A stretch of 64,000 nucleotides of DNA from Promethearchaeota archaeon. Lineage in GTDB: Archaea > Asgardarchaeota > Lokiarchaeia > Sigyniarchaeales > SOKP01. Location: assembly GCA_048938005.1 (NCBI GenBank), contig JBHLMQ010000012.1:29161-93160 (forward strand), given 5' to 3'. The first letter of the stretch is position 1; each line of letters opens with the position of its first letter. The notes beneath the pieces are model-generated. The model did not search any database. It saw nothing but the letters and a program-made list of their open reading frames with translations, and had not been told where the DNA came from. A program made the position numbers and the translations under genes. This document shows, piece after piece, positions 9,119 through 58,906 of this stretch.

Positions 9119-9320
9119 AAAATCTTTACATACTTACCACTTTAAAAAAATCTTTAACATTTCTTTTCAAATTAAGCGAAAATCAACTTTTTAATTTTAT
9201 ATATCTTACAAATTTAATAATTAAATAAATTTTAAATTGAATAATATTAATATTAATCCCAATAAAATTCCAAAAAACTTAACTTGAAAAAGTAGAGAAC
9301 TAATAAAAGGAGCCTTATTT

Positions 9321-10178
9321 TTGAAAACTTTAAGTTCAAAGAGGAAAACAAAAACCTTAAAAAATAGATCTGAAACAAAAGATGGTAATACAAAATACTT
9401 ATATCAAGATTTATACGATTACATCAAAAATTTCAAAACTAAAGAAGGTCAGATCCTTATCTCAATTATTTTACCTATGTATAATGAAGAAAAGACAATA
9501 AAAGTAGTTTTAGAGGAATTACCATATAATAACTCTATAGAGATTATCGTTGTTAATGATCATTCAACTGATAACAGTTTAAAAGAAATTGAAAAAGTTA
9601 AATTAAAAAGAGCGATTAAGGTAATAAATCATAAAAGAAATCGGGGTTATGGAGATGCGATAGTTTCAGGAATTTCACATGCGAATGGTAATATTATTGT
9701 AACTATGGATTCAGATGGTCAACACAGTTCTGATGATATCTTTTTTTTAGTAAAACCAATATTCGATGGGGAAGCGGATTATACAATAGGTTCAAGGTAT
9801 AAAGGAACTTACTTTTATAAATTACCTGTGTTAACTAGATTAGGAGAAGTACTAGTAGAAAAATTAATACAAATATTTTTTGGTAAAAGAGTAATGAATA
9901 ATCAGACGGGATTCCGCGCTTTTAGTAGAAAAGTTCTTCCTATTTTTGATAATATCAAATATCATAGATATGCTTTTTGTACAGAACAAATTTTAAAAGT
10001 TTCATTATCGGGATTTAAGATAAAAGAATGCCCAATCAAAGTTTATAGACGTGAATATGGATCCTCAAGTATTATATTAACAACATTAGCTAGAAGAATT
10101 TTTTCTTGTTTATTTTATTATTATATTCAAAAATTGAAATTAATGATGAAAAAAAGAAATAAAAATCGAAAATTTTGA
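9321..10178 (+). CDS. GT2 glycosyltransferase, DPM1/polyprenol-phosphate glycosyltransferase-like
   Basis: SIILPMYNEE, VVNDHSTD, NRGYGDA, MDSDGQH, IGSRY, QTGFRAF; AGGAG upstream of a TTG start. Confidence 0.9.
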   Translation: MKTLSSKRKTKTLKNRSETKDGNTKYLYQDLYDYIKNFKTKEGQILISIILPMYNEEKTIKVVLEELPYNNSIEIIVVNDHSTDNSLKEIEKVKLKRAIKVINHKRNRGYGDAIVSGISHANGNIIVTMDSDGQHSSDDIFFLVKPIFDGEADYTIGSRYKGTYFYKLPVLTRLGEVLVEKLIQIFFGKRVMNNQTGFRAFSRKVLPIFDNIKYHRYAFCTEQILKVSLSGFKIKECPIKVYRREYGSSSIILTTLARRIFSCLFYYYIQKLKLMMKKRNKNRKF

Positions 10179-11374: not shown

Positions 11375-12271
11375 TTAGGATAAGTCCCTGTTTATTATAT
11401 AATTTTTAAGTTCTAAGATGACTGTTTTCATATCTTTTTTTTCTATGATTTTTTCTAGATTAGAATATTTTGTAGAAAGCGATCGATCTATTTTTTCTTC
11501 TGGTTTATTAACTCTATTGATTTTTAAGTTCTTTTCAAATATATCATTGAAGATATGCATTAATTGATATTTATTGACTGTATTGTTTGGTATGTAATGA
11601 TGTATGTAGGATATTTGTAATAATTGATTATAAATATTAGATGATATTATCTGTTCACATAATTGAGCGAATTGAAGTGTAGTTACCCCATTCCATATAT
11701 GGTGCTCAAAACCTCCGATAGTACCTCCTTTAGGTTGACTTAAAAACCATTCAAGTAAGAAATTTGTTCCTTTTTTGAATTCAGGACCAATTATAGAGCA
11801 TCTTATTATTAACATTGAACCATCAAATACTTCACCAAGACTTTTTGATTTCCCATAAACATCTAACGGATCATGTGGATCGGTTTCAATATATTTACCT
11901 CTTTTACCAGAATATACACAATCGGTACCAATCTGAATTAATTTAATATTATGTTTTTTAGCATAACTAGCTAATTTCCATGGAAAATCTGAATTTATAA
12001 GGATTGCTCTTTTAACTCCTTCAGGATCATCATCTTTGGAGAAAGGTTTAGTAATCCCTATACAATTAATAATGTAATCTAATTTTAGATCAAGAAATTG
12101 TTGGTCTTCTAACTGAGAAATTTCATAAGCATCAAAAAGAAACATTTTATCTTTTAAAAAATTAGAATTTCTCACAGTTCCATAAACTTTAAAATTAGGA
12201 TTTTTCGAAAGGTAATCAAAAACCATTGAACCTAACATTCCGCTAACACCTAGAACTAAAATGCCTGTAAT
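11375..12271 (-). CDS. RmlD-like NDP-4-keto-sugar reductase (extended SDR), predicted ATT start
   Basis: TDCVYSG and DVYGKSK motifs. The Rossmann motif ILVLGVSGMLG begins upstream of the first ATG (12238); in-frame TAA at 12287-12289; GAGGT lies 7 nt before ATT at 12271. Confidence 0.85.
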   Translation of the reverse strand: MTGILVLGVSGMLGSMVFDYLSKNPNFKVYGTVRNSNFLKDKMFLFDAYEISQLEDQQFLDLKLDYIINCIGITKPFSKDDDPEGVKRAILINSDFPWKLASYAKKHNIKLIQIGTDCVYSGKRGKYIETDPHDPLDVYGKSKSLGEVFDGSMLIIRCSIIGPEFKKGTNFLLEWFLSQPKGGTIGGFEHHIWNGVTTLQFAQLCEQIISSNIYNQLLQISYIHHYIPNNTVNKYQLMHIFNDIFEKNLKINRVNKPEEKIDRSLSTKYSNLEKIIEKKDMKTVILELKNYIINRDLS

Positions 12272-35570: not shown

Positions 35571-36415
35571 TTATTGAATTGATCTTATTTTTTGGAGACA
35601 AAAAGTTAAAAAAGTAAAATCAAAATTAAATCTTTTCCATTTAACTGCTTTTTCTTGGCAATTTAGATCAATTTCTGGATCAAATAATTTAAATCCTTTA
35701 AGGTATACTTTTTTTAATAATTTGCTTAATGCTTCCCTATTATAAACATAAACAGGTTTATGATATGCGATCAAGCCTCTAGTATCCACATCCTCTTCCC
35801 AGTAGTCTGTAGATGTAATTAAGAGATCGTCTTTTTTTAAAATTCTGTTCATTTCATTAAAATATTGGTCTTCATTTACATCATGCTCAATTACACCGAT
35901 GCAGGTTATAATATTGAATCAATTATCCGGAAAGGGAGATTTTGTTAAATTTCCAGGAAAAAAATTAATTTTACCTATTCTAAATCTTTTTTTATAAGTT
36001 AAATTTATACAATATAGATTATAATAACCAAATTGATACAACCAATTAAGTATAAGAGAGGATTTTATTCCTCCAGCGTCTAAAATTTTTACTGATTTAT
36101 TTGAATTCTTAAGAATTATATCTAAAGCGATTAATGAATCCCAATTTTTCGCTAAACTATTGGGATGAAGATTTAAATTAGACTTATGAATAATTTCTAT
36201 TGATTTATAGATGTCTTTTTTTGTTTTTAATGTGGTGTTTCTCCAAGTTACAGATTTTGGTATTTTAGGCGAAAAAGTATAGCTCTTTAGGATTTTTAAA
36301 GAGTTTTTATAAACAAAATGAGATTCTAATAACTTATTTTATATTTTATATAATTTACAATTGAATTACGAACGATTGGGGAACTAATTTTTTTAATTAT
36401 TTTTCTTAACTTCAT
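35571..36415 (-). pseudogene. Class I SAM methyltransferase pseudogene
   Basis: KNWDSLIAL...KILDAGG...SPFPDN*FNIITCIGVIEH...EMNRILK, with an in-frame TGA at 35919-35921 and an apparent frameshift near 36340 after ATG 36415. Confidence 0.8.
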
Positions 36416-44708: not shown

Positions 44709-46022
44709 ATAAGAAATATAATTCTCGGAATTGATGGTGGAACATTCAACCATATTATTCCATATATCAAGAAGAGGTTATTACCTAACTTTAAAAAACT
44801 ATTTCGAGAGGGATTTTACTCCGATTTGAATGTAACGATTCCTCCTGTAACAATTCCTTCATTTCCTTGTCTTTTTACTGGTCTGTCAGTTAAGGATCTT
44901 GGATATTGTACTTTTTATGATCCATCATTTGGTATTTTTTCTTCAAAATTATGGAGAGAATGGAGTATAATGAGTAATACTAATCTACGTATATTTTGTT
45001 TAAATCTCCCATCCTCATATCCAGCTTGGAACTTTAACGGTGAAATGATAACAGGGATGATAACTCCCACATTGAATGAAAAAATGTACTTTCCTAATGG
45101 GATTGGTAAAATAATTAGAAAGGACTGGATAATTGACGGATCCGATATTAATGAAATTTTTCAAGCCTTTAAAATTAAAAGTAAATTGTTTTTAGAAAAA
45201 TTGAAAGAAGATTTTGAATTATTTATCTATATCATCCGCGTCCCGGACTGTATAACCCATCACCCTAAATATAGATTAAAACGTACTCAAGATATTATAA
45301 AAGAGGGATATAAAAGAATCGATAATTTTTTGGGAAAAATACTAAGTTCAATAAATTTTGACAATTTATTTATCATCAGCGATCATGGTTTAAAAATTTA
45401 TCAATATGAATTTAATATCAAGCGTTTTCTAGAAAAAGAAAAAGTTTTATTCTATAATAATGATAAAATCTCTAAATTTATGAGTATTTTCGTTAAAATA
45501 TTTGGATTTTTTAATAGAACTCTATTTGATACAACTTTTTTTCATAATAACTTTAAAACGTTCTTAACAAAATTAAAAGCTAAAATTAATCCTTCGGGTT
45601 CTCAAAATAAAAAAATAAATATTCTAAATAAGTCAAGGTTTATACATTTCTATTCAAATTATGGAGGATTATATTTAAGTGAATATGATAAAAAATTCAA
45701 AAAAAAAATTAAAATTATATCAAAAAAATGTAAATATATTGAAGATGTCATAGAATTTGATTCAAAAACATTACCTGATCTCATTTTTTGTTTAAAAAGT
45801 AATTACCTCTATAGTGTTAAGAGTTCTTTTTTCTTAAAAAACCGCTTCAATTCCTTTAATCATTCTGATAAAGGAATTTTTATCGCGTATGGAAAAAATA
45901 TTATACATGGACGTTCTAACGAAACTAATTATTTGGACTTTATTCCTACGCTTTTAAAATTATATGAAATCCCAATTCCTGCTCATATGAGAGGGAGAAT
46001 TCTCAAAATAATCAATAAATAG
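44709..46022 (+). CDS. Alkaline-phosphatase-superfamily phosphodiesterase, predicted ATA start
   Basis: IILGIDGGTF and LLPNFKKL lie upstream of the first canonical start (TTG 44826); in-frame TGA at 44700-44702; PPVTIPSF, PDCITH, SDHG, DFIPT. Confidence 0.85.
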   Translation: MRNIILGIDGGTFNHIIPYIKKRLLPNFKKLFREGFYSDLNVTIPPVTIPSFPCLFTGLSVKDLGYCTFYDPSFGIFSSKLWREWSIMSNTNLRIFCLNLPSSYPAWNFNGEMITGMITPTLNEKMYFPNGIGKIIRKDWIIDGSDINEIFQAFKIKSKLFLEKLKEDFELFIYIIRVPDCITHHPKYRLKRTQDIIKEGYKRIDNFLGKILSSINFDNLFIISDHGLKIYQYEFNIKRFLEKEKVLFYNNDKISKFMSIFVKIFGFFNRTLFDTTFFHNNFKTFLTKLKAKINPSGSQNKKINILNKSRFIHFYSNYGGLYLSEYDKKFKKKIKIISKKCKYIEDVIEFDSKTLPDLIFCLKSNYLYSVKSSFFLKNRFNSFNHSDKGIFIAYGKNIIHGRSNETNYLDFIPTLLKLYEIPIPAHMRGRILKIINK

Positions 46023-52370: not shown

Positions 52371-54626
52371 ATGAATAAAATACATCATAATATTAAAAGA
52401 GAAATTATAATAATATCGATTCTACTTTTTGTGATTTCTATCAATTTTACGCTTATTTTACCATTCTTAAATCAATCTAATTCTTCAAATAAAATTCAAG
52501 AGAAAAATTCTGAATTTAATGACCTTAAATTTAGTGGACAAGAGATTAATATTACCACTCCAGAAAATATAACCTATACCACACCAATGAGTGGATATTA
52601 TCCTGCGACATATGGATTCGAAAATGAACCAGATGGGACTTCGAGAACATCTATAGATTTTATTTATAATGTTAGTATCGCTGGTACATGTCAAATTGAT
52701 GCATCTCAAGGAACTCACTCAAAAGTATTATATACTCTTGATTCAAGTACAAGTGTTGGAATGAATTTTGGGCACCATATTGATAATCCTCAAACATCAG
52801 GGACATTAGAAGTCTGGGTTTATATATCAGATACATATTTAGGGAATGATCGTATAATAATTCGTTCTAAAGACAATGCTGATACGAATTTTGGGTTTCA
52901 GTTAACATTCGAAGACTCCTTATTTCAAGATGCTCAAGGAAACACCGCGCCAATGGCATATAATGAATGGTATCATCTAAAAATTATTTTTAATTGTACT
53001 GCGGGAATTAATGGTCAGTATGATTGGTATATTAACGGGAATTTAAAATATTCTAATGTGGAAATGGTTGATAGCTGTACAGATGTTTCTAATATTTATC
53101 TTCGTGGACACAGTGCAACGCAAGGGAGAGCCTACTGGGATGCTTTTGGCTTTTCATGGGATCCAAATTATAACATTGGGGATAATCTAAATGAAGGATT
53201 ATTACTCAGTTTCGATACTTATCCCAACTTAAATTGGATTGGATATTCCTTGGATGGTCAAGCCAATAAAACAATTCTAGGGAATACCACTATTCCAATG
53301 CCAAATGATGGTTTACACTCAATTCAAGTATCTGGTAATAATACAGGCGGTACAATGTATCAATCTGATATGAGATATTTTACAGTTGATATAGATAATA
53401 TTATAATAAAAACACCAGAAAATATAACTTATACAGCACCAATGAGTGGATATTATCCTGCGACATATGGATTCGAAAATGAACCAGATGGGACTTCGAG
53501 AACATCTATAGATTTTATTTATAATGTTAGTATCGCTGGTACATGTCAAATTGATGCATCTCAAGGAACTCACTCAAAAGTATTATATACTCTTGATTCA
53601 AGTACAAGTGTTGGAATGAATTTTGGGCACCATATTGATAATCCTCAAACATCAGGGACATTAGAAGTCTGGGTTTATATATCAGATACATATTTAGGGA
53701 ATGATCGTATAATAATTCGTTCTAAAGACAATGCTGATACGAATTTTGGGTTTCAGTTAACATTCGAAGACTCCTTATTTCAAGATGCTCAAGGAAACAC
53801 CGCGCCAATGGCATATAATGAATGGTATCATCTAAAAATTATTTTTAATTGTACTGCGGGAATTAATGGTCAGTATGATTGGTATATTAACGGGAATTTA
53901 AAATATTCTAATGTGGAAATGGTTGATAGCTGTACAGATGTTTCTAATATTTATCTTCGTGGACACAGTGCAACGCAAGGGAGAGCCTACTGGGATGCTT
54001 TTGGCTTTTCATGGGATCCAAATTATAACATTGGGGATAATCTAAATGAAGGATTATTACTCAGTTTCGATACTTATCCCAACTTAAATTGGATTGGATA
54101 TTCCTTGGATGGTCAAGCCAATAAAACAATTCTAGGGAATACCACTATTCCAATGCCAAATGATGGTTTACACTCAATTCAAGTATCTGGTAATAATACA
54201 GGCGGTACAATGTATCAATCTGATATGAGATATTTTTCAATTGATACTCATGCTCCAACATCAATGATATTGTTCACACCTTATAGTGGAATGAATCAAG
54301 TGATCAAATCAACGAAATTTAATCTTACTGCAAATGATGGATTAGGTTCTGGAGTTTCAGTAATTAGATACAAAATCAATAACTCAGGGTGGATTGACTA
54401 TAGTTCTTCATTTAATTTATCCAATTATGATTATGGATACTATATGATATATTATTATTCTGTTGATGTAGTAGGGCATATTGAATCCGAAAATACCCTT
54501 TTAGTAGAATTAATTGAAGAACCAAGTGAACCAATTATATCGGGATATATTACTATGTTATTGATAACATCAATATGCATCGCAGCAATAATTACAATTA
54601 AGAAAAGACTTAAAAATAATTTTTAA
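52371..54626 (+). CDS. Cell-surface protein: signal peptide, 2x (Ig-like domain with inserted LamG/ConA-like domain), Ig-like domain, Loki-CTERM-like anchor
   Basis: N-terminal hydrophobic segment; SGTLEVWVY, NEWYHLKIIF, YDWYINGN (LamG-like); WIGYSLDGQAN...DGLHSIQV (Ig-like); ends ISGY + TM + KKR; many N-x-S/T sequons. Confidence 0.85.
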   Translation: MNKIHHNIKREIIIISILLFVISINFTLILPFLNQSNSSNKIQEKNSEFNDLKFSGQEINITTPENITYTTPMSGYYPATYGFENEPDGTSRTSIDFIYNVSIAGTCQIDASQGTHSKVLYTLDSSTSVGMNFGHHIDNPQTSGTLEVWVYISDTYLGNDRIIIRSKDNADTNFGFQLTFEDSLFQDAQGNTAPMAYNEWYHLKIIFNCTAGINGQYDWYINGNLKYSNVEMVDSCTDVSNIYLRGHSATQGRAYWDAFGFSWDPNYNIGDNLNEGLLLSFDTYPNLNWIGYSLDGQANKTILGNTTIPMPNDGLHSIQVSGNNTGGTMYQSDMRYFTVDIDNIIIKTPENITYTAPMSGYYPATYGFENEPDGTSRTSIDFIYNVSIAGTCQIDASQGTHSKVLYTLDSSTSVGMNFGHHIDNPQTSGTLEVWVYISDTYLGNDRIIIRSKDNADTNFGFQLTFEDSLFQDAQGNTAPMAYNEWYHLKIIFNCTAGINGQYDWYINGNLKYSNVEMVDSCTDVSNIYLRGHSATQGRAYWDAFGFSWDPNYNIGDNLNEGLLLSFDTYPNLNWIGYSLDGQANKTILGNTTIPMPNDGLHSIQVSGNNTGGTMYQSDMRYFSIDTHAPTSMILFTPYSGMNQVIKSTKFNLTANDGLGSGVSVIRYKINNSGWIDYSSSFNLSNYDYGYYMIYYYSVDVVGHIESENTLLVELIEEPSEPIISGYITMLLITSICIAAIITIKKRLKNNF
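52582..54236 (+). repeat. Intragenic direct repeat: two apparently identical 800-bp copies (52582-53381 and 53437-54236), period 855 bp
   Basis: No differences were spotted between the copies by inspection and the translated copies match; flanking codons differ. Confidence 0.93.
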
Positions 54627-54636
54627 AAGTATTTTT

Positions 54637-55080
54637 TTATATTTTTTCTCTTATTGAAGTTGAATTTATTTTTTGATTATCCTTATCTTTAATAATTGGA
54701 ATAACGATTAAGATGAGAGGGTTTAATCCTTTACTTTCTCTAATTTTATTTAATTTTAAAGCATTATCATAGGTTTCTTGACTTACAATCAATCCCTCAT
54801 ATTCAGGATCTTGAGAATAATACTCCATATCCTTCCAATTTTTTATTTCAACAATATTTATACGATTTAAATGTGAAAAAGAATTAATAAAATTCTCTAA
54901 ATTTTTTTTTCTAGTCTTATAATCCTCTATTTTAGAATAATGTTTCTTATTTGCTAATAATTCCTGAGATGTCAATCCAATCTCTACTAATTCAGAAATA
55001 GATAAAGCTGTTTTCAATAAAGATTTATGACCTTCGTGTAGATGATCGAAAGTTCCACCTAATCCAATTTTTTTAAGAAT
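54637..55080 (-). CDS. coaD: Phosphopantetheine adenylyltransferase (archaeal type), predicted ATT start
   Basis: KKIGLGGTFDHLHEGH lies upstream of the listed TTG (55017); IGLTS, IVSQET, LNKIRESKGL, INSTSIR; in-frame TAG at 55093-55095. Confidence 0.92.
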   Translation of the reverse strand: MLKKIGLGGTFDHLHEGHKSLLKTALSISELVEIGLTSQELLANKKHYSKIEDYKTRKKNLENFINSFSHLNRINIVEIKNWKDMEYYSQDPEYEGLIVSQETYDNALKLNKIRESKGLNPLILIVIPIIKDKDNQKINSTSIREKI

Positions 55081-55122
55081 CTGAAAAACACCCTAACAAG
55101 TAAAAGACATTATTATTTTAAA

Positions 55123-55557
55123 TTATTTTTTTACTTTTAAAGTTTCTTGCTTACTTTCTGGTGTTTTACCTTTTTCGGCAGGTCGTTTCAATCTAACTGA
55201 GTATATTTGCTTTATCTCCATTGAGCCCTCACACTTCTCACACTTGTCTCTTCTTTTAAATACAAAATCTCCTTTCTCATAATTTCTTACTTTAGTAAGT
55301 CCACATAATTTACAGATCAAAATTGTTAAAGTTTGTCTTATAGGTTCTTGAGGGCCTTTCTGCATTTGGATCAAAGTAGCACCAAAACAAATTAACATAA
55401 AACCAATTGACCAACTCGTTATTTGATCAAGCCCAAAATTGAAATAAATTAATAATGCGCCGAAGATAATAAGTAAAATTAACAATATGTTTTTTAAAAT
55501 GCTTTTAAGAGTGACTCCTTTTTTTAATACATCCTCATCGTCTTCTTCTTCAATCAT
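55123..55557 (-). CDS. Small membrane protein with a zinc-ribbon domain
   Basis: Two TM helices, then CKLC...RNYEKGDFVF...CEKC. Confidence 0.7.
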   Translation of the reverse strand: MIEEEDDEDVLKKGVTLKSILKNILLILLIIFGALLIYFNFGLDQITSWSIGFMLICFGATLIQMQKGPQEPIRQTLTILICKLCGLTKVRNYEKGDFVFKRRDKCEKCEGSMEIKQIYSVRLKRPAEKGKTPESKQETLKVKK

Positions 55558-56813: not shown

Positions 56814-57037
56814 TTCCTCTTTACTTTTATTAATAGTAAATCTTTATTTTTTTGAATTTCATTGAATAGTGTTTTTAATTTTTTTTCTCTTCTTAAAATA
56901 ACTAAGCATAATTAGTTCACAAATAAAATAGAAACTATTTTATAATTAAGGGAATAAAATAAATTAATTACTATTTTTAATTTGATTAAAATAAAATTAG
57001 GAAATTAAATAAAAGATATTATTGAGGTGTAAAGAAA

Positions 57038-58906
57038 ATTTACGGTTATATGGGAAAGATTTTAAGAGTCAATTTGGCAAATGGAAAAATTAGCGAAGAA
57101 TTTCCTGACGAACAAACATTAAAATTATATTTAGGTGGAGCTGGTTTAGCAACTAAATATTTAATAGACGAAGTACCTAAGGGTATAGATCCACTAGGAC
57201 CAGAGAATAAGTTAATTTTCATGACTGGGCCATTAACAGGAACTCCCTCTCCTAGTACTGGAAGATATAGTGTAGTTGCAAAGTCTCCTCTCACTGGTAT
57301 ATGGGGTCAAGCGAACTCCGCAGGTTTTTGGGGAAGAGATCTTAAAAGATCCGGGTTTGATGGAATAATAGTTGAAGATATCTCACCAAAACCTGTTTAT
57401 CTTGTTACAGAAGATGGAAAGGCAGAACTTAGGGATGCAAGCCATCTCTGGGGTAAAAATACATCAGATACAACAAGATTGATTAGAGAAGAACTTGGTG
57501 ATAAGTTTAATGTAGCTTGCATTGGTATTGGTGGAGAAAATCTAGTCAAATTCGCTGCAGTAATGAACGATTGTGATAAACCTAATTGGGGGCGAGCAGC
57601 TGGAAGGTGTGGAATGGGAACTGTAATGGGTGCTAAGAAATTAAAAGCTGTAGCTTCTAAAGGAAACACTAAGATTGAAGTAGCGAACCCTGAAGAATAT
57701 AAGGCAGAGGCCAAACAAAGATACGATTGGGTAAACCAAAGCTTATTAAAAATGACACTTGAAGTATTTGGAACAGCTACCATGCTTGATTTAGTTCATG
57801 TTAAAGGTGGTTTACCAACTAGAAATTGGCAAACTGGAATCTTTGAAGGTGCTGATAATATAAATGGAACAGCAATTAACGACACTATCCTTACTGACAG
57901 AAAGCCTTGCTTTGCATGTCCAATTGCTTGTGGACGTCTTGTTGAAATCAAAGAGGGCAAGTATAAAAGTAAAGGAGAGGGACCTGAATATGAAACATTA
58001 GGCACTTTTGGCAGTATGTGCGGAGTTGATAATTTAGAAGCAATCACTTTCGCTCACTTCCTTTGCAATGAATATGGGCTTGATAGCATTTCTGCTGGAA
58101 ATACTGTTGGATTTTCTATAGAATGTTTTGAAAAGGGAATCTTAACCACTGAAGATACCGGTGGAATAGAGCTCAACTTTGGTGATGCTGACCTCATTGT
58201 CGATATTGTACCTAAAATAGGTAAAAGAGAAGGTATTGGTGATTTATTAGCTGAGGGAACAAGAAATATGGCAAATAAACTTGGTAGGGATTCCATAAAA
58301 TTCGCTATGCAAGTTAAAGGCTTGGAACTTCCAGCTTATGATAGTAGGGCTGCTAAAATAACAGGATTAGCATATGCTACGGCAAATCGAGGAGGTGATC
58401 ATATGGCTGCTTGGATCGAAGGACCAGCATTTTTATCAATGCCTTTTATGCTTATTAACGATGCTGATGTAGGTGATCCTCTTCAAGAAATTCCGGAAAA
58501 AACTTTTATCCTTAAAGATTTAGAGGATGGATTTGGAATATTTGACGCAATTGGTGGATGTAAATTTATGGGGATAGTTCTAAGTGCCGAAGATTGGGCA
58601 TCCTTAATTTCTAAATTATTAGGTTATGAATATACGGAGGCTGATTTCAGAAAGACAGGTGAGAGGCTCTTTAATCTCGCTAGGATTTACAATATTAGAG
58701 AAGGATTAACTAGGGCAGATGACACCCTTCCTGATCGTCTGTTAAACGAACCAATGCCCGAAGGGCCGGCTAAGGGACAGACAGTTAATTTAGATCCTCT
58801 TTTAGATGCCTATTATCAAATTCGAGGGTGGGATAAGAATGGTATTCCTACTAAGGAAAAACTTAAAGAACTTGGACTAGATTGGGCAATTAATATCATT
58901 TATTAA
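57038..58906 (+). CDS. aor: Tungsten-dependent aldehyde:ferredoxin oxidoreductase family; probable ATT start (YGYMGKILRVNL), alternative ATG 57050
   Basis: AKSPLTG, AAGRCGMGTVMGAKKLKA, CFACPIACG, GPEYET, QVKGLE, NRGGDH, YYQIRGWD. Confidence 0.95.
   Translation: MYGYMGKILRVNLANGKISEEFPDEQTLKLYLGGAGLATKYLIDEVPKGIDPLGPENKLIFMTGPLTGTPSPSTGRYSVVAKSPLTGIWGQANSAGFWGRDLKRSGFDGIIVEDISPKPVYLVTEDGKAELRDASHLWGKNTSDTTRLIREELGDKFNVACIGIGGENLVKFAAVMNDCDKPNWGRAAGRCGMGTVMGAKKLKAVASKGNTKIEVANPEEYKAEAKQRYDWVNQSLLKMTLEVFGTATMLDLVHVKGGLPTRNWQTGIFEGADNINGTAINDTILTDRKPCFACPIACGRLVEIKEGKYKSKGEGPEYETLGTFGSMCGVDNLEAITFAHFLCNEYGLDSISAGNTVGFSIECFEKGILTTEDTGGIELNFGDADLIVDIVPKIGKREGIGDLLAEGTRNMANKLGRDSIKFAMQVKGLELPAYDSRAAKITGLAYATANRGGDHMAAWIEGPAFLSMPFMLINDADVGDPLQEIPEKTFILKDLEDGFGIFDAIGGCKFMGIVLSAEDWASLISKLLGYEYTEADFRKTGERLFNLARIYNIREGLTRADDTLPDRLLNEPMPEGPAKGQTVNLDPLLDAYYQIRGWDKNGIPTKEKLKELGLDWAINIIY

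Follow-up and report, generated by a model that had tools for sequence, protein, structure and literature searches.

In the genome of a Promethearchaeota archaeon (GTDB lineage Asgardarchaeota; Lokiarchaeia; Sigyniarchaeales; SOKP01; assembly GCA_048938005.1), we analysed a stretch of 64,000 nucleotides (contig JBHLMQ010000012.1, positions 29,161 to 93,160 of the forward strand; hereafter the window), in which the coaD gene for the archaeal phosphopantetheine adenylyltransferase (PPAT) appears to begin at a codon other than ATG, GTG or TTG, the three codons that are called canonical throughout. The gene occupies positions 54637..55080 on the minus strand and, counted from an ATT at 55078..55080, comprises 147 codons plus the stop codon TAA (54639-54637). 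Read in this direction, the frame is closed upstream by an in-frame TAG (55093..55095) and continues with GGT GTT TTT CAG, the ATT, and CTT AAA AAA ATT GGA TTA, after which the codons of GGTFDHLHEGH follow (GGT GGA ACT TTC GAT CAT CTA CAC GAA GGT CAT; 55027..55059, that is, 55059-55027 as read). This HxGH nucleotidyltransferase motif is catalytic, and the first canonical codon of the frame, a TTG at 55015..55017, is located downstream of it. A Shine-Dalgarno-like AGGGTG (55089..55094) overlaps the TAG and is separated from the ATT by 8 nt. The original prediction had been built on these features, namely that the catalytic motif lies ahead of the first canonical codon, that the TAG closes the frame with no ATG, GTG or TTG between it and the motif, and that AGGGTG stands 8 nt before the ATT, and the sequence does read in this way; it had not mentioned an ATG at 55110-55108, which is in the coaD frame five codons ahead of the TAG.

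Translated from stop to stop, the frame matches the NCBIfam model NF001985 (PRK00777) with 138.6 bits at a cut-off of 104, with residues 6-150 corresponding to profile positions 4-144 of 157. Since residue 6, the Leu after the ATT, coincides with profile position 4, the N-terminus of the family fits a start at the ATT, from which the predicted product would begin with (M)LKKIGLGGTFDHLHEGHK. An intact paralogue, the existence of which had been named as a possible objection, was not found in the genome, which is 95% complete by marker genes: in a search with the coaD protein and the family model, coaD is the sole NF001985 match over the cut-off (138.5 bits), and two weaker nucleotidyltransferase relatives stay below it with 48.9 and 26 bits. 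As judged from its family match, coaD is an intact, single-copy, essential gene of coenzyme A synthesis that encodes PPAT, and the evidence supports that it must start at the ATT at 55080.

The 5' ends of coaD orthologues taken from 40 relatives provide a second line of evidence. All 18 same-genus sequences, our own included, have ATT as the aligned codon and keep a GGTG or GAGGT approximately 8 nt upstream, and the frames of the 17 same-genus relatives are intact and contain the catalytic motif at 59-77% identity. In five of the 18 (L005, L006, L008, L011 and L014) an in-frame stop directly precedes the ATT, which consequently leaves no other possible start there. The upstream stops of the relatives are TAG, TAA or TGA at varying positions, and the ATG at 55110 is not conserved; because relatives carry TAA, TGA or TAG at the position of 55095 or directly before the ATT, the stop at 55095 represents a true stop and not a recoded codon. 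In a scan of one genome per species, the GGTFD motif was readable in 62 of 80 loci, and the codon seven positions ahead of it is ATT in 47, ATG in six, GTG, ATA and TTG in one each, and some other codon in six, the latter being more distant sequences; 28 of the 62 have no canonical codon at all between stop and motif. The six ATG loci come from a sister clade (~51-62% identity), in which ATG-Leu/Phe-Lys/Asn-Leu aligns with ATT-Leu-Lys-Lys, and in other families of the order an ATG precedes the motif by a few codons in most of the loci that could be read. The ATT of coaD is therefore best read as derived from an ATG start, and it has since been kept in dozens of species. Over 54900-55250, the contigs from four public DNA runs, each of a different study, are identical at 55078-55080 and 55093-55095, and thus show ATT and not ATG at the start; the same contigs vary at other positions, as is ordinary between strains, and one of the runs may be the source of the assembly.

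Three further sites of the window, at 12271, 44709 and 57038, had been proposed to follow the same pattern, and all of them exist as described, with the restriction that a usable ATG lies four codons downstream of 57038. The gene of an RmlD-like NAD-dependent reductase (11378..12271, minus strand) would start at an ATT (12271-12269) behind GAGGT (12283-12279) in a frame closed by TAA, which runs TAA AGA GAG GTA ATC AGA ATT ACA GGC ATT TTA GTT CTA GGT GTT AGC GGA ATG. Its Rossmann GxxGxxG, the glycine-rich dinucleotide-binding loop, precedes the first ATG. With the ATT taken as codon 1, residue 4 is where the profiles PF04321 and PF01370 start, and that of TIGR01214 also starts ahead of the first ATG. 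At the aligned position, seven sequences of the genus contain ATT (our own), ATG (three times), GTG, ATA and ACG, which gives a direct picture of putative start codons exchanging at one site. The gene at 44709..46019 (plus strand, closed by TGA) belongs to the type I phosphodiesterase/nucleotide pyrophosphatase family and would start at an ATA (44709-44711), with position 2 of the PF01663 profile at residue 4 counted from this codon and the first canonical codon 39 codons past it; the sole orthologue found (G008) has ATA at the aligned codon and GGTG plus 7 nt upstream. Finally, the gene of an aldehyde:ferredoxin oxidoreductase (AOR; 57038..58903, plus strand, closed by TGA) would start at an ATT (57038-57040) with GAGGTG (57024-57029) 8 nt upstream. 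Profile position 4 of NF007354 matches residue 4 of the AOR stop-to-stop frame, so that the match covers residues ahead of the ATG. Among 23 AOR orthologues the aligned codon is ATT in 22 and ATA in one, GAGGTG is invariant, the two spacer codons before the ATT vary freely, and the three codons for Tyr-Gly-Tyr that separate the ATT from the internal ATG show synonymous changes. In coaD and in the genes at 12271 and 44709, no canonical codon precedes the conserved N-terminus after the in-frame stop, which does not strictly hold for 57038.

The pattern is also found beyond the window. The genome, a metagenome bin of 3.72 Mb with 29.8% G+C (95% complete by marker genes, 7% contamination), shows a G-rich signal at -13 to -8 upstream of 1319 unambiguous ATG starts, and 5-base matches to GGAGGTGATC peak 7 nt ahead of ATG with a range of 5-10 (1318 unambiguous ATG starts). 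Because the 3' end of its 16S rRNA, the anti-Shine-Dalgarno, is GGATCACCTCCT, the GGAGGTGATC-type signal can be taken as the Shine-Dalgarno motif of this genome. For a census, 3116 non-overlapping stop-to-stop frames of at least 100 codons were listed from the whole genome, and the count was confined to in-frame codons that lie after the upstream stop and before the first canonical codon, excluding the four codons adjacent to the latter. The strict form of the census demanded a 5-base Shine-Dalgarno match and compared a near-cognate set (ATT, ATA, ATC, ACG and CTG) with a control set of twenty codons. A count of Shine-Dalgarno motif plus triplet that ignored the frame context was dropped, as GGTG within coding regions swamps the signal.

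At a Shine-Dalgarno spacing of 7, ATT (18/1198), ATA (18/982), ATC (6/236) and ACG (3/45) occur in frame, whereas the controls AAT (0/1134), TAT (0/735), TTA (0/1045) and TTT (0/1071) do not; TTC, ACT, ACA and TCT show no peak at this spacing either, and AAA accounts for four cases. No spacing peak is seen for ATT, ATA and ATC in the +1 frame, and in the other shifted frame only AAT and TAT peak, one base ahead of in-frame ATT and ATA sites. When a start has spacing 7, the TGA contained in GGTGA shares its frame and might bias the spacing, but it would do so equally for all codons, and the controls are without a peak. Over spacings 6-8, the near-cognates score 70 of 2504 versus 41 of 8690 for the controls (odds ratio 6.1, p = 2.9e-20), and the corresponding strict value for first ATG codons is 126 of 2143. 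By codon, the candidates divide into 35 ATT, 25 ATA, nine ATC, four ACG and one CTG, and the composition of their second codons is not discriminating. The near-cognate peak at 7 nt coincides with that of ATG, and coaD and AOR have a spacing of 8, as would be expected from the claim that the spacing resembles that of ATG genes.

Sixty-three candidates lie at least 8 codons ahead of the first canonical codon, and ten of them were sent to Pfam. In eight cases the match opens with profile position 1 or 2 at residues 2-22 counted from the proposed start, well ahead of the first canonical codon, and the proteins concerned are uL16, ThiF, Usp, an enoyl-CoA hydratase, an ABC transporter, a Ras-like GTPase, a response regulator and an AOR N-domain. 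In an orthologue test, stop-to-stop translations were set against sequence from G017, a distant congener (220 kb), and from G083, which belongs to a sister genus (180 kb), and 13 of the 149 pairs extend at least 8 residues ahead of the first canonical codon. Six near-cognate starts were read by eye among the pairs extending at least 5 residues, where a_2597 extends by only 6 residues; their partners have ATG in some cases, and elsewhere ATA stands against ACG, ATT against ATA, and ACG against CTG. The remainder of the extended pairs consists of two selenoprotein genes preceded by TGA, one broken gene, and others that were not classified.

With regard to related genomes, the ratio of near-cognate to ATG hits amounts to 0.56 in the present genome (family f1, whole genome), 0.67 in G022 (f1, 400 kb), 2.3 in G017 (f1, 220 kb), 1.5 in G083 (f1, 180 kb), 0.19 in G038 (f2, 800 kb; 7/391 versus 6/1509 controls, p = 0.008) and 0.12 in G071 (f7, 800 kb; 6/413 versus 11/2078 controls, p = 0.049), where the counts outside this genome are small and the related genomes are not independent of each other. 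Census, Pfam and orthologues together agree with the original prediction in that AUU and AUA initiation looks systematic, in the family as well as in the genome, and they add AUC, ACG and, rarely, CUG to the list of putative start codons.

Essential genes are among those affected. The uL16 (L10e) gene (C29:5830-6219, minus strand), which lies outside the window, has a predicted ATC start behind AAAAGGTGA and 6 nt, its first canonical codon follows 39 codons past the ATC, and its product would begin with (M)AHKRPWR. Across ten genomes of the genus, our own included, the aligned codon is ATC in three, ATG in four, TTG in two and GTG in one, and across eight genomes from other families of the order it is ATG in seven and GTG in one. 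The sole gene of the initiation factor aIF1 (SUI1; C41:33718-34038, minus strand, also outside the window) contains no ATG, GTG or TTG before the zinc knuckle; its frame reads TAA GAG AGC ATT AAA GAC GAC GAA ATT TGT CCT, and from the ATT the predicted N-terminus is (M)KDDEICPICSFPK. All 22 genomes of genus g1 retain this ATT together with the AAAGGTTGTGA ahead of it, and in two of these genomes a stop lies one codon before the ATT. An ATT is likewise present in genera g14 (3/3) and g12 (2/2), and genus g13 is ambiguous between GTG and ATA, which brings the family to 27 of 28. Seven genomes of family f2 start aIF1 with TTG (three), GTG (two) or ATA (two) and never with ATG, and the 23 readable loci (of 30) from other Asgard families have ATG in 15, GTG in two, ATA without a canonical alternative in three, probably CTG in two, and an ambiguous start in one. 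As such, a conserved weak initiation signal is present on the gene of a fidelity factor, and the comparisons show near-cognate starts, as predicted from alignment, in the essential genes coaD, uL16 and aIF1.

It had been suggested in addition that the fidelity of aIF1 or aIF2 is altered in this lineage, and this part of the original prediction found only partial support. The initiator tRNA, the only tRNA with A1:U72 and a GGG/CCC anticodon stem, has a CAU anticodon and looks canonical, and aIF1 keeps the LQGDHR motif. Several residues of the factor that are otherwise conserved in Asgard aIF1 are altered, among them the G of the I-x-G stretch (to F) and the C of ACGGT (to S), changes that are common to family f2, and no link to fidelity could be drawn from them. 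The ATT start of its own gene links aIF1 to the phenomenon, but a changed fidelity does not follow from it. The tRNA genes were detected with ARAGORN (nine without and 16 with intron search) and the Rfam tRNA model (25), resulting in 27 genes overall. Most of them contain introns, not all of which occupy canonical positions; the gene of the initiator tRNA is interrupted after position 40 by an intron of 32 nt, and that of one elongator tRNA-Met by an intron of 65 nt.

From our point of view, it is likely, with a probability of about 0.85, that coaD starts at the AUU at 55080 as one case of a lineage-wide habit of near-cognate initiation in this Promethearchaeia (Lokiarchaeia-type) family. AUU, AUA and AUC would dominate as start codons, with fewer ACG and CUG, and most would be located behind a good Shine-Dalgarno motif at the spacing of AUG genes. 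The comparisons show candidate starts that are needed, as no canonical codon is available, that are conserved or interchange with ATG, GTG and TTG, and that are associated with a Shine-Dalgarno motif. Mechanistically, AGGGUG could pair with the 3' end of the 16S rRNA and thereby place the ribosome at the coaD AUU 8 nt downstream, where the ordinary initiator Met-tRNA (CAU) would read near-cognates with one mismatch, so that the proteins presumably begin with Met. A/T-biased mutation, at 30% G+C, may turn ATG into ATH (ATT, ATA or ATC), and ATH could be tolerated because start-codon proofreading is relaxed on mRNAs that are held by a strong Shine-Dalgarno motif. Moreover, the AUU start of aIF1 might make the supply of this proofreading factor depend on how much initiation takes place at AUU.

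Several observations weigh against this interpretation or limit its reach. The strict census misses coaD itself, which has a 4-base GGTG core at spacing 8, and two of the ten candidates sent to Pfam, N-terminal pieces of a uL15-like and a thiolase-like protein, were without a match; the uL15-like gene has an ATT start by the same criteria, and the piece concerned is truncated. An N-terminus count in the close congener G022 was dropped, as 97 of 299 pairs appeared 'extended' by at least 5 residues, mostly owing to conserved untranslated regions. The share of genes with near-cognate starts, roughly estimated at ~4-8% from four of ~52 window genes, six of 149 orthologue pairs and an excess of ~60 strict Shine-Dalgarno sites, is based on small samples that were partly read by eye, and its extrapolation to all genes is rough. 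Within the window, 44709 is the weakest of the four sites because its own Shine-Dalgarno motif is poor and one orthologue only was found, and at AOR the ATG at 57050, four codons downstream, could also serve, so that the ATT is not strictly needed. The habit is graded and without sharp bounds, being strongest in family f1 and fainter elsewhere, and all compared genomes show some signal. The set of 27 tRNA genes is incomplete, and a second, unusual initiator tRNA is possible. Finally, no RNA run containing the stretch is present among the public runs listed, and the N-terminal residue and the site of initiation are thus deduced from DNA comparisons.

Some alternatives would do without near-cognate initiation altogether. 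Translation of coaD could start at the ATG at 55110 and read the TAG at 55095 as an amino acid. This ATG is indeed in frame, and a protein-collection entry (P0001; 157 residues, MSFTCQGVFQ...) has been built in exactly this manner, but in relatives the TAG is replaced by TAA or TGA, or the ATT directly follows a stop, and the ATG at 55110 is not conserved among them. As TAG also terminates 518 of the 3939 long open frames of the genome and the other window sites are closed by TAA or TGA, read-through is ruled out on these comparative grounds, above all by the variable stops and the absence of the upstream ATG, although no search for pyrrolysine genes was made, and we regard its probability as negligible. 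Just as improbable to us is that start codons were mutated or mis-called in genes that are dead or mis-assembled. A metagenome bin with 7% contamination may raise such a suspicion, and a methyltransferase-like pair of frames in the window (35574-36338) does look broken, but the coaD frames retain their catalytic motif at 59-77% identity in 17 same-genus relatives, the same ATT recurs in 47 species and in the contigs of four runs, and single-copy essentials such as PPAT, uL16 and aIF1 are among the affected genes. It is also highly improbable that the downstream canonical codons are used and the proteins are N-terminally shortened. For AOR this would be feasible, since a start at 57050 costs only 4 residues, and several public gene calls pick such starts; in coaD, however, the HxGH catalytic motif would be removed, and the nucleotide-binding loops would be lost in the RmlD-like, ThiF, ABC and Ras-like genes. 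In addition, the upstream codons of AOR change synonymously, and the Shine-Dalgarno motif is positioned for the AUH codon and not for the downstream one.

Two other explanations accept the starts and differ in what lies behind them. The AUU codons could be isolated, gene-specific weak starts in the manner of infC or pcnB, by which expression is kept low in just a few genes, coaD and aIF1 among them, with no genome-wide relaxation. The ATT is invariant, and does not toggle, at coaD (18/18), AOR (22/23) and aIF1 (22/22), which resembles selection for a weak start at particular genes. Against this stand the codon-specific excess of ~60 sites, obtained with the strict 5-base Shine-Dalgarno match alone, the Pfam support for eight unrelated families, and the free interchange at uL16 (ATC/ATG/GTG/TTG) and the RmlD-like gene (ATT/ATG/GTG/ATA/ACG), which argues for a general tolerance, and we therefore consider isolated starts very unlikely as the whole explanation. 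A dedicated decoding system, in which AUH is read by an additional initiator-like tRNA or through a modified anticodon, with Ile possibly inserted, seems hardly more than a marginal prospect. It would account for AUH being far above CUG and ACG (35, 25 and nine candidates for ATT, ATA and ATC compared with four for ACG and one for CTG), and it could hide in a detected tRNA set of 27 genes, many with introns, that is incomplete. However, the only tRNA with A1:U72 and the GGG/CCC stem carries CAU, ACG and CUG starts would not be explained by an AUH-specific tRNA, and A/T mutation bias by itself predicts an excess of AUH.

Near-cognate initiation as such is known. In bacteria, the genes infC (encoding IF3) and pcnB have AUU start codons, and infC is autoregulated. 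As in infC, a Shine-Dalgarno motif would lead to an AUU that starts an intact, conserved gene, and as the infC product rejects such codons, aIF1 would be its functional counterpart in the present case. The difference is one of extent, as model bacteria have one or two such genes per genome and here several per cent of genes, a ribosomal protein included, may be concerned, with AUA, AUC and ACG in addition. Furthermore, this archaeon possesses the eukaryote-type factors aIF1 and aIF2, and an aIF1 loop can be proposed by analogy only. In eukaryotes, eIF1 is described as subject to negative feedback in that high eIF1 inhibits its own translation (PMC6237735). aIF1 is the homologue of eIF1, and in both cases the mRNA of the proofreading factor itself would have a weak initiation signal; this signal is an AUG in poor (Kozak) context in eukaryotes, whereas here it would be the codon itself, behind a Shine-Dalgarno motif. 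Eukaryotic near-cognates also mostly serve upstream frames or protein extensions, whereas here they would be the only start of main genes.

For archaea, the acceptance of GUG and UUG is already established. The aIF1 of Saccharolobus solfataricus is reported to make the 30S complex reject an AUU model mRNA (PMC4705826), from which AUU rejection would be predicted, yet the present lineage seems to use AUU routinely. A 'rare ATT start codon' has further been proposed for the tubulin AtubA in a Kariarchaeaceae (Heimdall-type Asgard) genome (PMC13394414). This is likewise an Asgard gene, whose conserved N-terminal strand is included only if translation is taken to begin at an ATT that is plausibly spaced from a ribosome-binding site, but it is a single gene treated as a rarity, with no genome- or lineage-wide claim. 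A full-text literature search, which covered sources other than subscription journals, returned no description of systematic AUU, AUA or AUC initiation in an archaeal lineage, nor of an aIF1 gene with a near-cognate start. Lineage-wide use of near-cognates as sole starts in an archaeon would hence be undescribed in the searchable literature.

Tentatively, one could speculate that the invariant AUU of aIF1 acts as a feedback sensor that sets the start stringency of the whole cell, a scenario we hold to be possible rather than probable. If aIF1 rejects AUU while being made from an AUU start, negative feedback would result: scarcity of aIF1 would increase AUU initiation and this, in turn, would yield more aIF1. 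A lenient set-point of such a loop could let A/T pressure turn ATG into ATH and make Shine-Dalgarno-led AUU, AUA and AUC starts workable for several per cent of genes, ribosomal proteins included, and coaD, AOR and aIF1 might then represent an aIF1-responsive regulon. Should this be true, archaea at the root of the eukaryotic lineage would possess an equivalent of the infC loop in bacteria and the eIF1 loop in eukaryotes.

The choice of start codons in prokaryotes is usually treated as nearly fixed to ATG, GTG and TTG, and AUU is regarded as an oddity confined to one or two genes. Gene finders limited to canonical starts will shorten or miss genes of the kind described here, and truncated or missed genes would affect metabolic reconstructions and structure predictions for Asgard archaea, for which the tubulin case may serve as an example (PMC13394414). 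The lineage could further serve as a natural system for how a machinery of the aIF1/aIF2 type, the ancestor of the eukaryotic one, tunes its stringency, and the putative AUU start of aIF1 makes it directly testable whether an archaeal fidelity factor is autoregulated like those of bacteria and eukaryotes.

A systematic 5' mis-annotation had also been anticipated, and this applies to some pipelines only. The coaD entries of ENA, JGI and Logan (141-144 aa) start at internal codons, whereas the NCBI entries of relatives have 147-148 residues and begin with MLKKVGLGG, that is, at the ATT. The entry P0001 (window 54640-55110, minus strand), with its start at the ATG at 55110 and the TAG at 55095 read as Q, is an artefact of a gene caller trying an alternative genetic code.

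Some additional observations were made in the course of the analysis. At 35574-36338 of the window (minus strand), two adjacent open frames are split by a single in-frame TGA (35919-35921). From the motifs ILDAGG and ITCIGVIEH we take them to be S-adenosylmethionine (SAM)-methyltransferase-like; the first frame has no ATG and contains ~25 N-terminal residues fewer than its relative in G017, and in Pfam neither frame was matched. The pair is probably a broken gene, with a selenocysteine codon as a possible alternative. Outside the window, the neighbouring paralogous frames a_2836 and a_2837 on contig C86 share a conserved in-frame TGA followed by x-Cys-Lys-Leu, and a tRNA-Sec(TCA) was found in the genome by ARAGORN. 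Both are probably selenoproteins, presumably selenophosphate synthetase or related to it.

A GT2 glycosyltransferase gene at 9288-10175 (plus strand) was tried as a fifth case of the window and rejected, as its TTG is conserved in two G017 paralogues. Its Pfam-type domain begins at residue 58 of the frame, and the start is probably this TTG at codon 12, which would give an N-terminal extension of 46 residues. Finally, the plus-strand gene at 52371-54626 encodes a secreted or membrane-anchored protein of 751 residues with many N-x-T/S sites and a near-exact internal duplication of ~270 residues, in which ITTPENITYTTPMSGYYPATYGFENEPDGTS...SDMRYF occurs twice.

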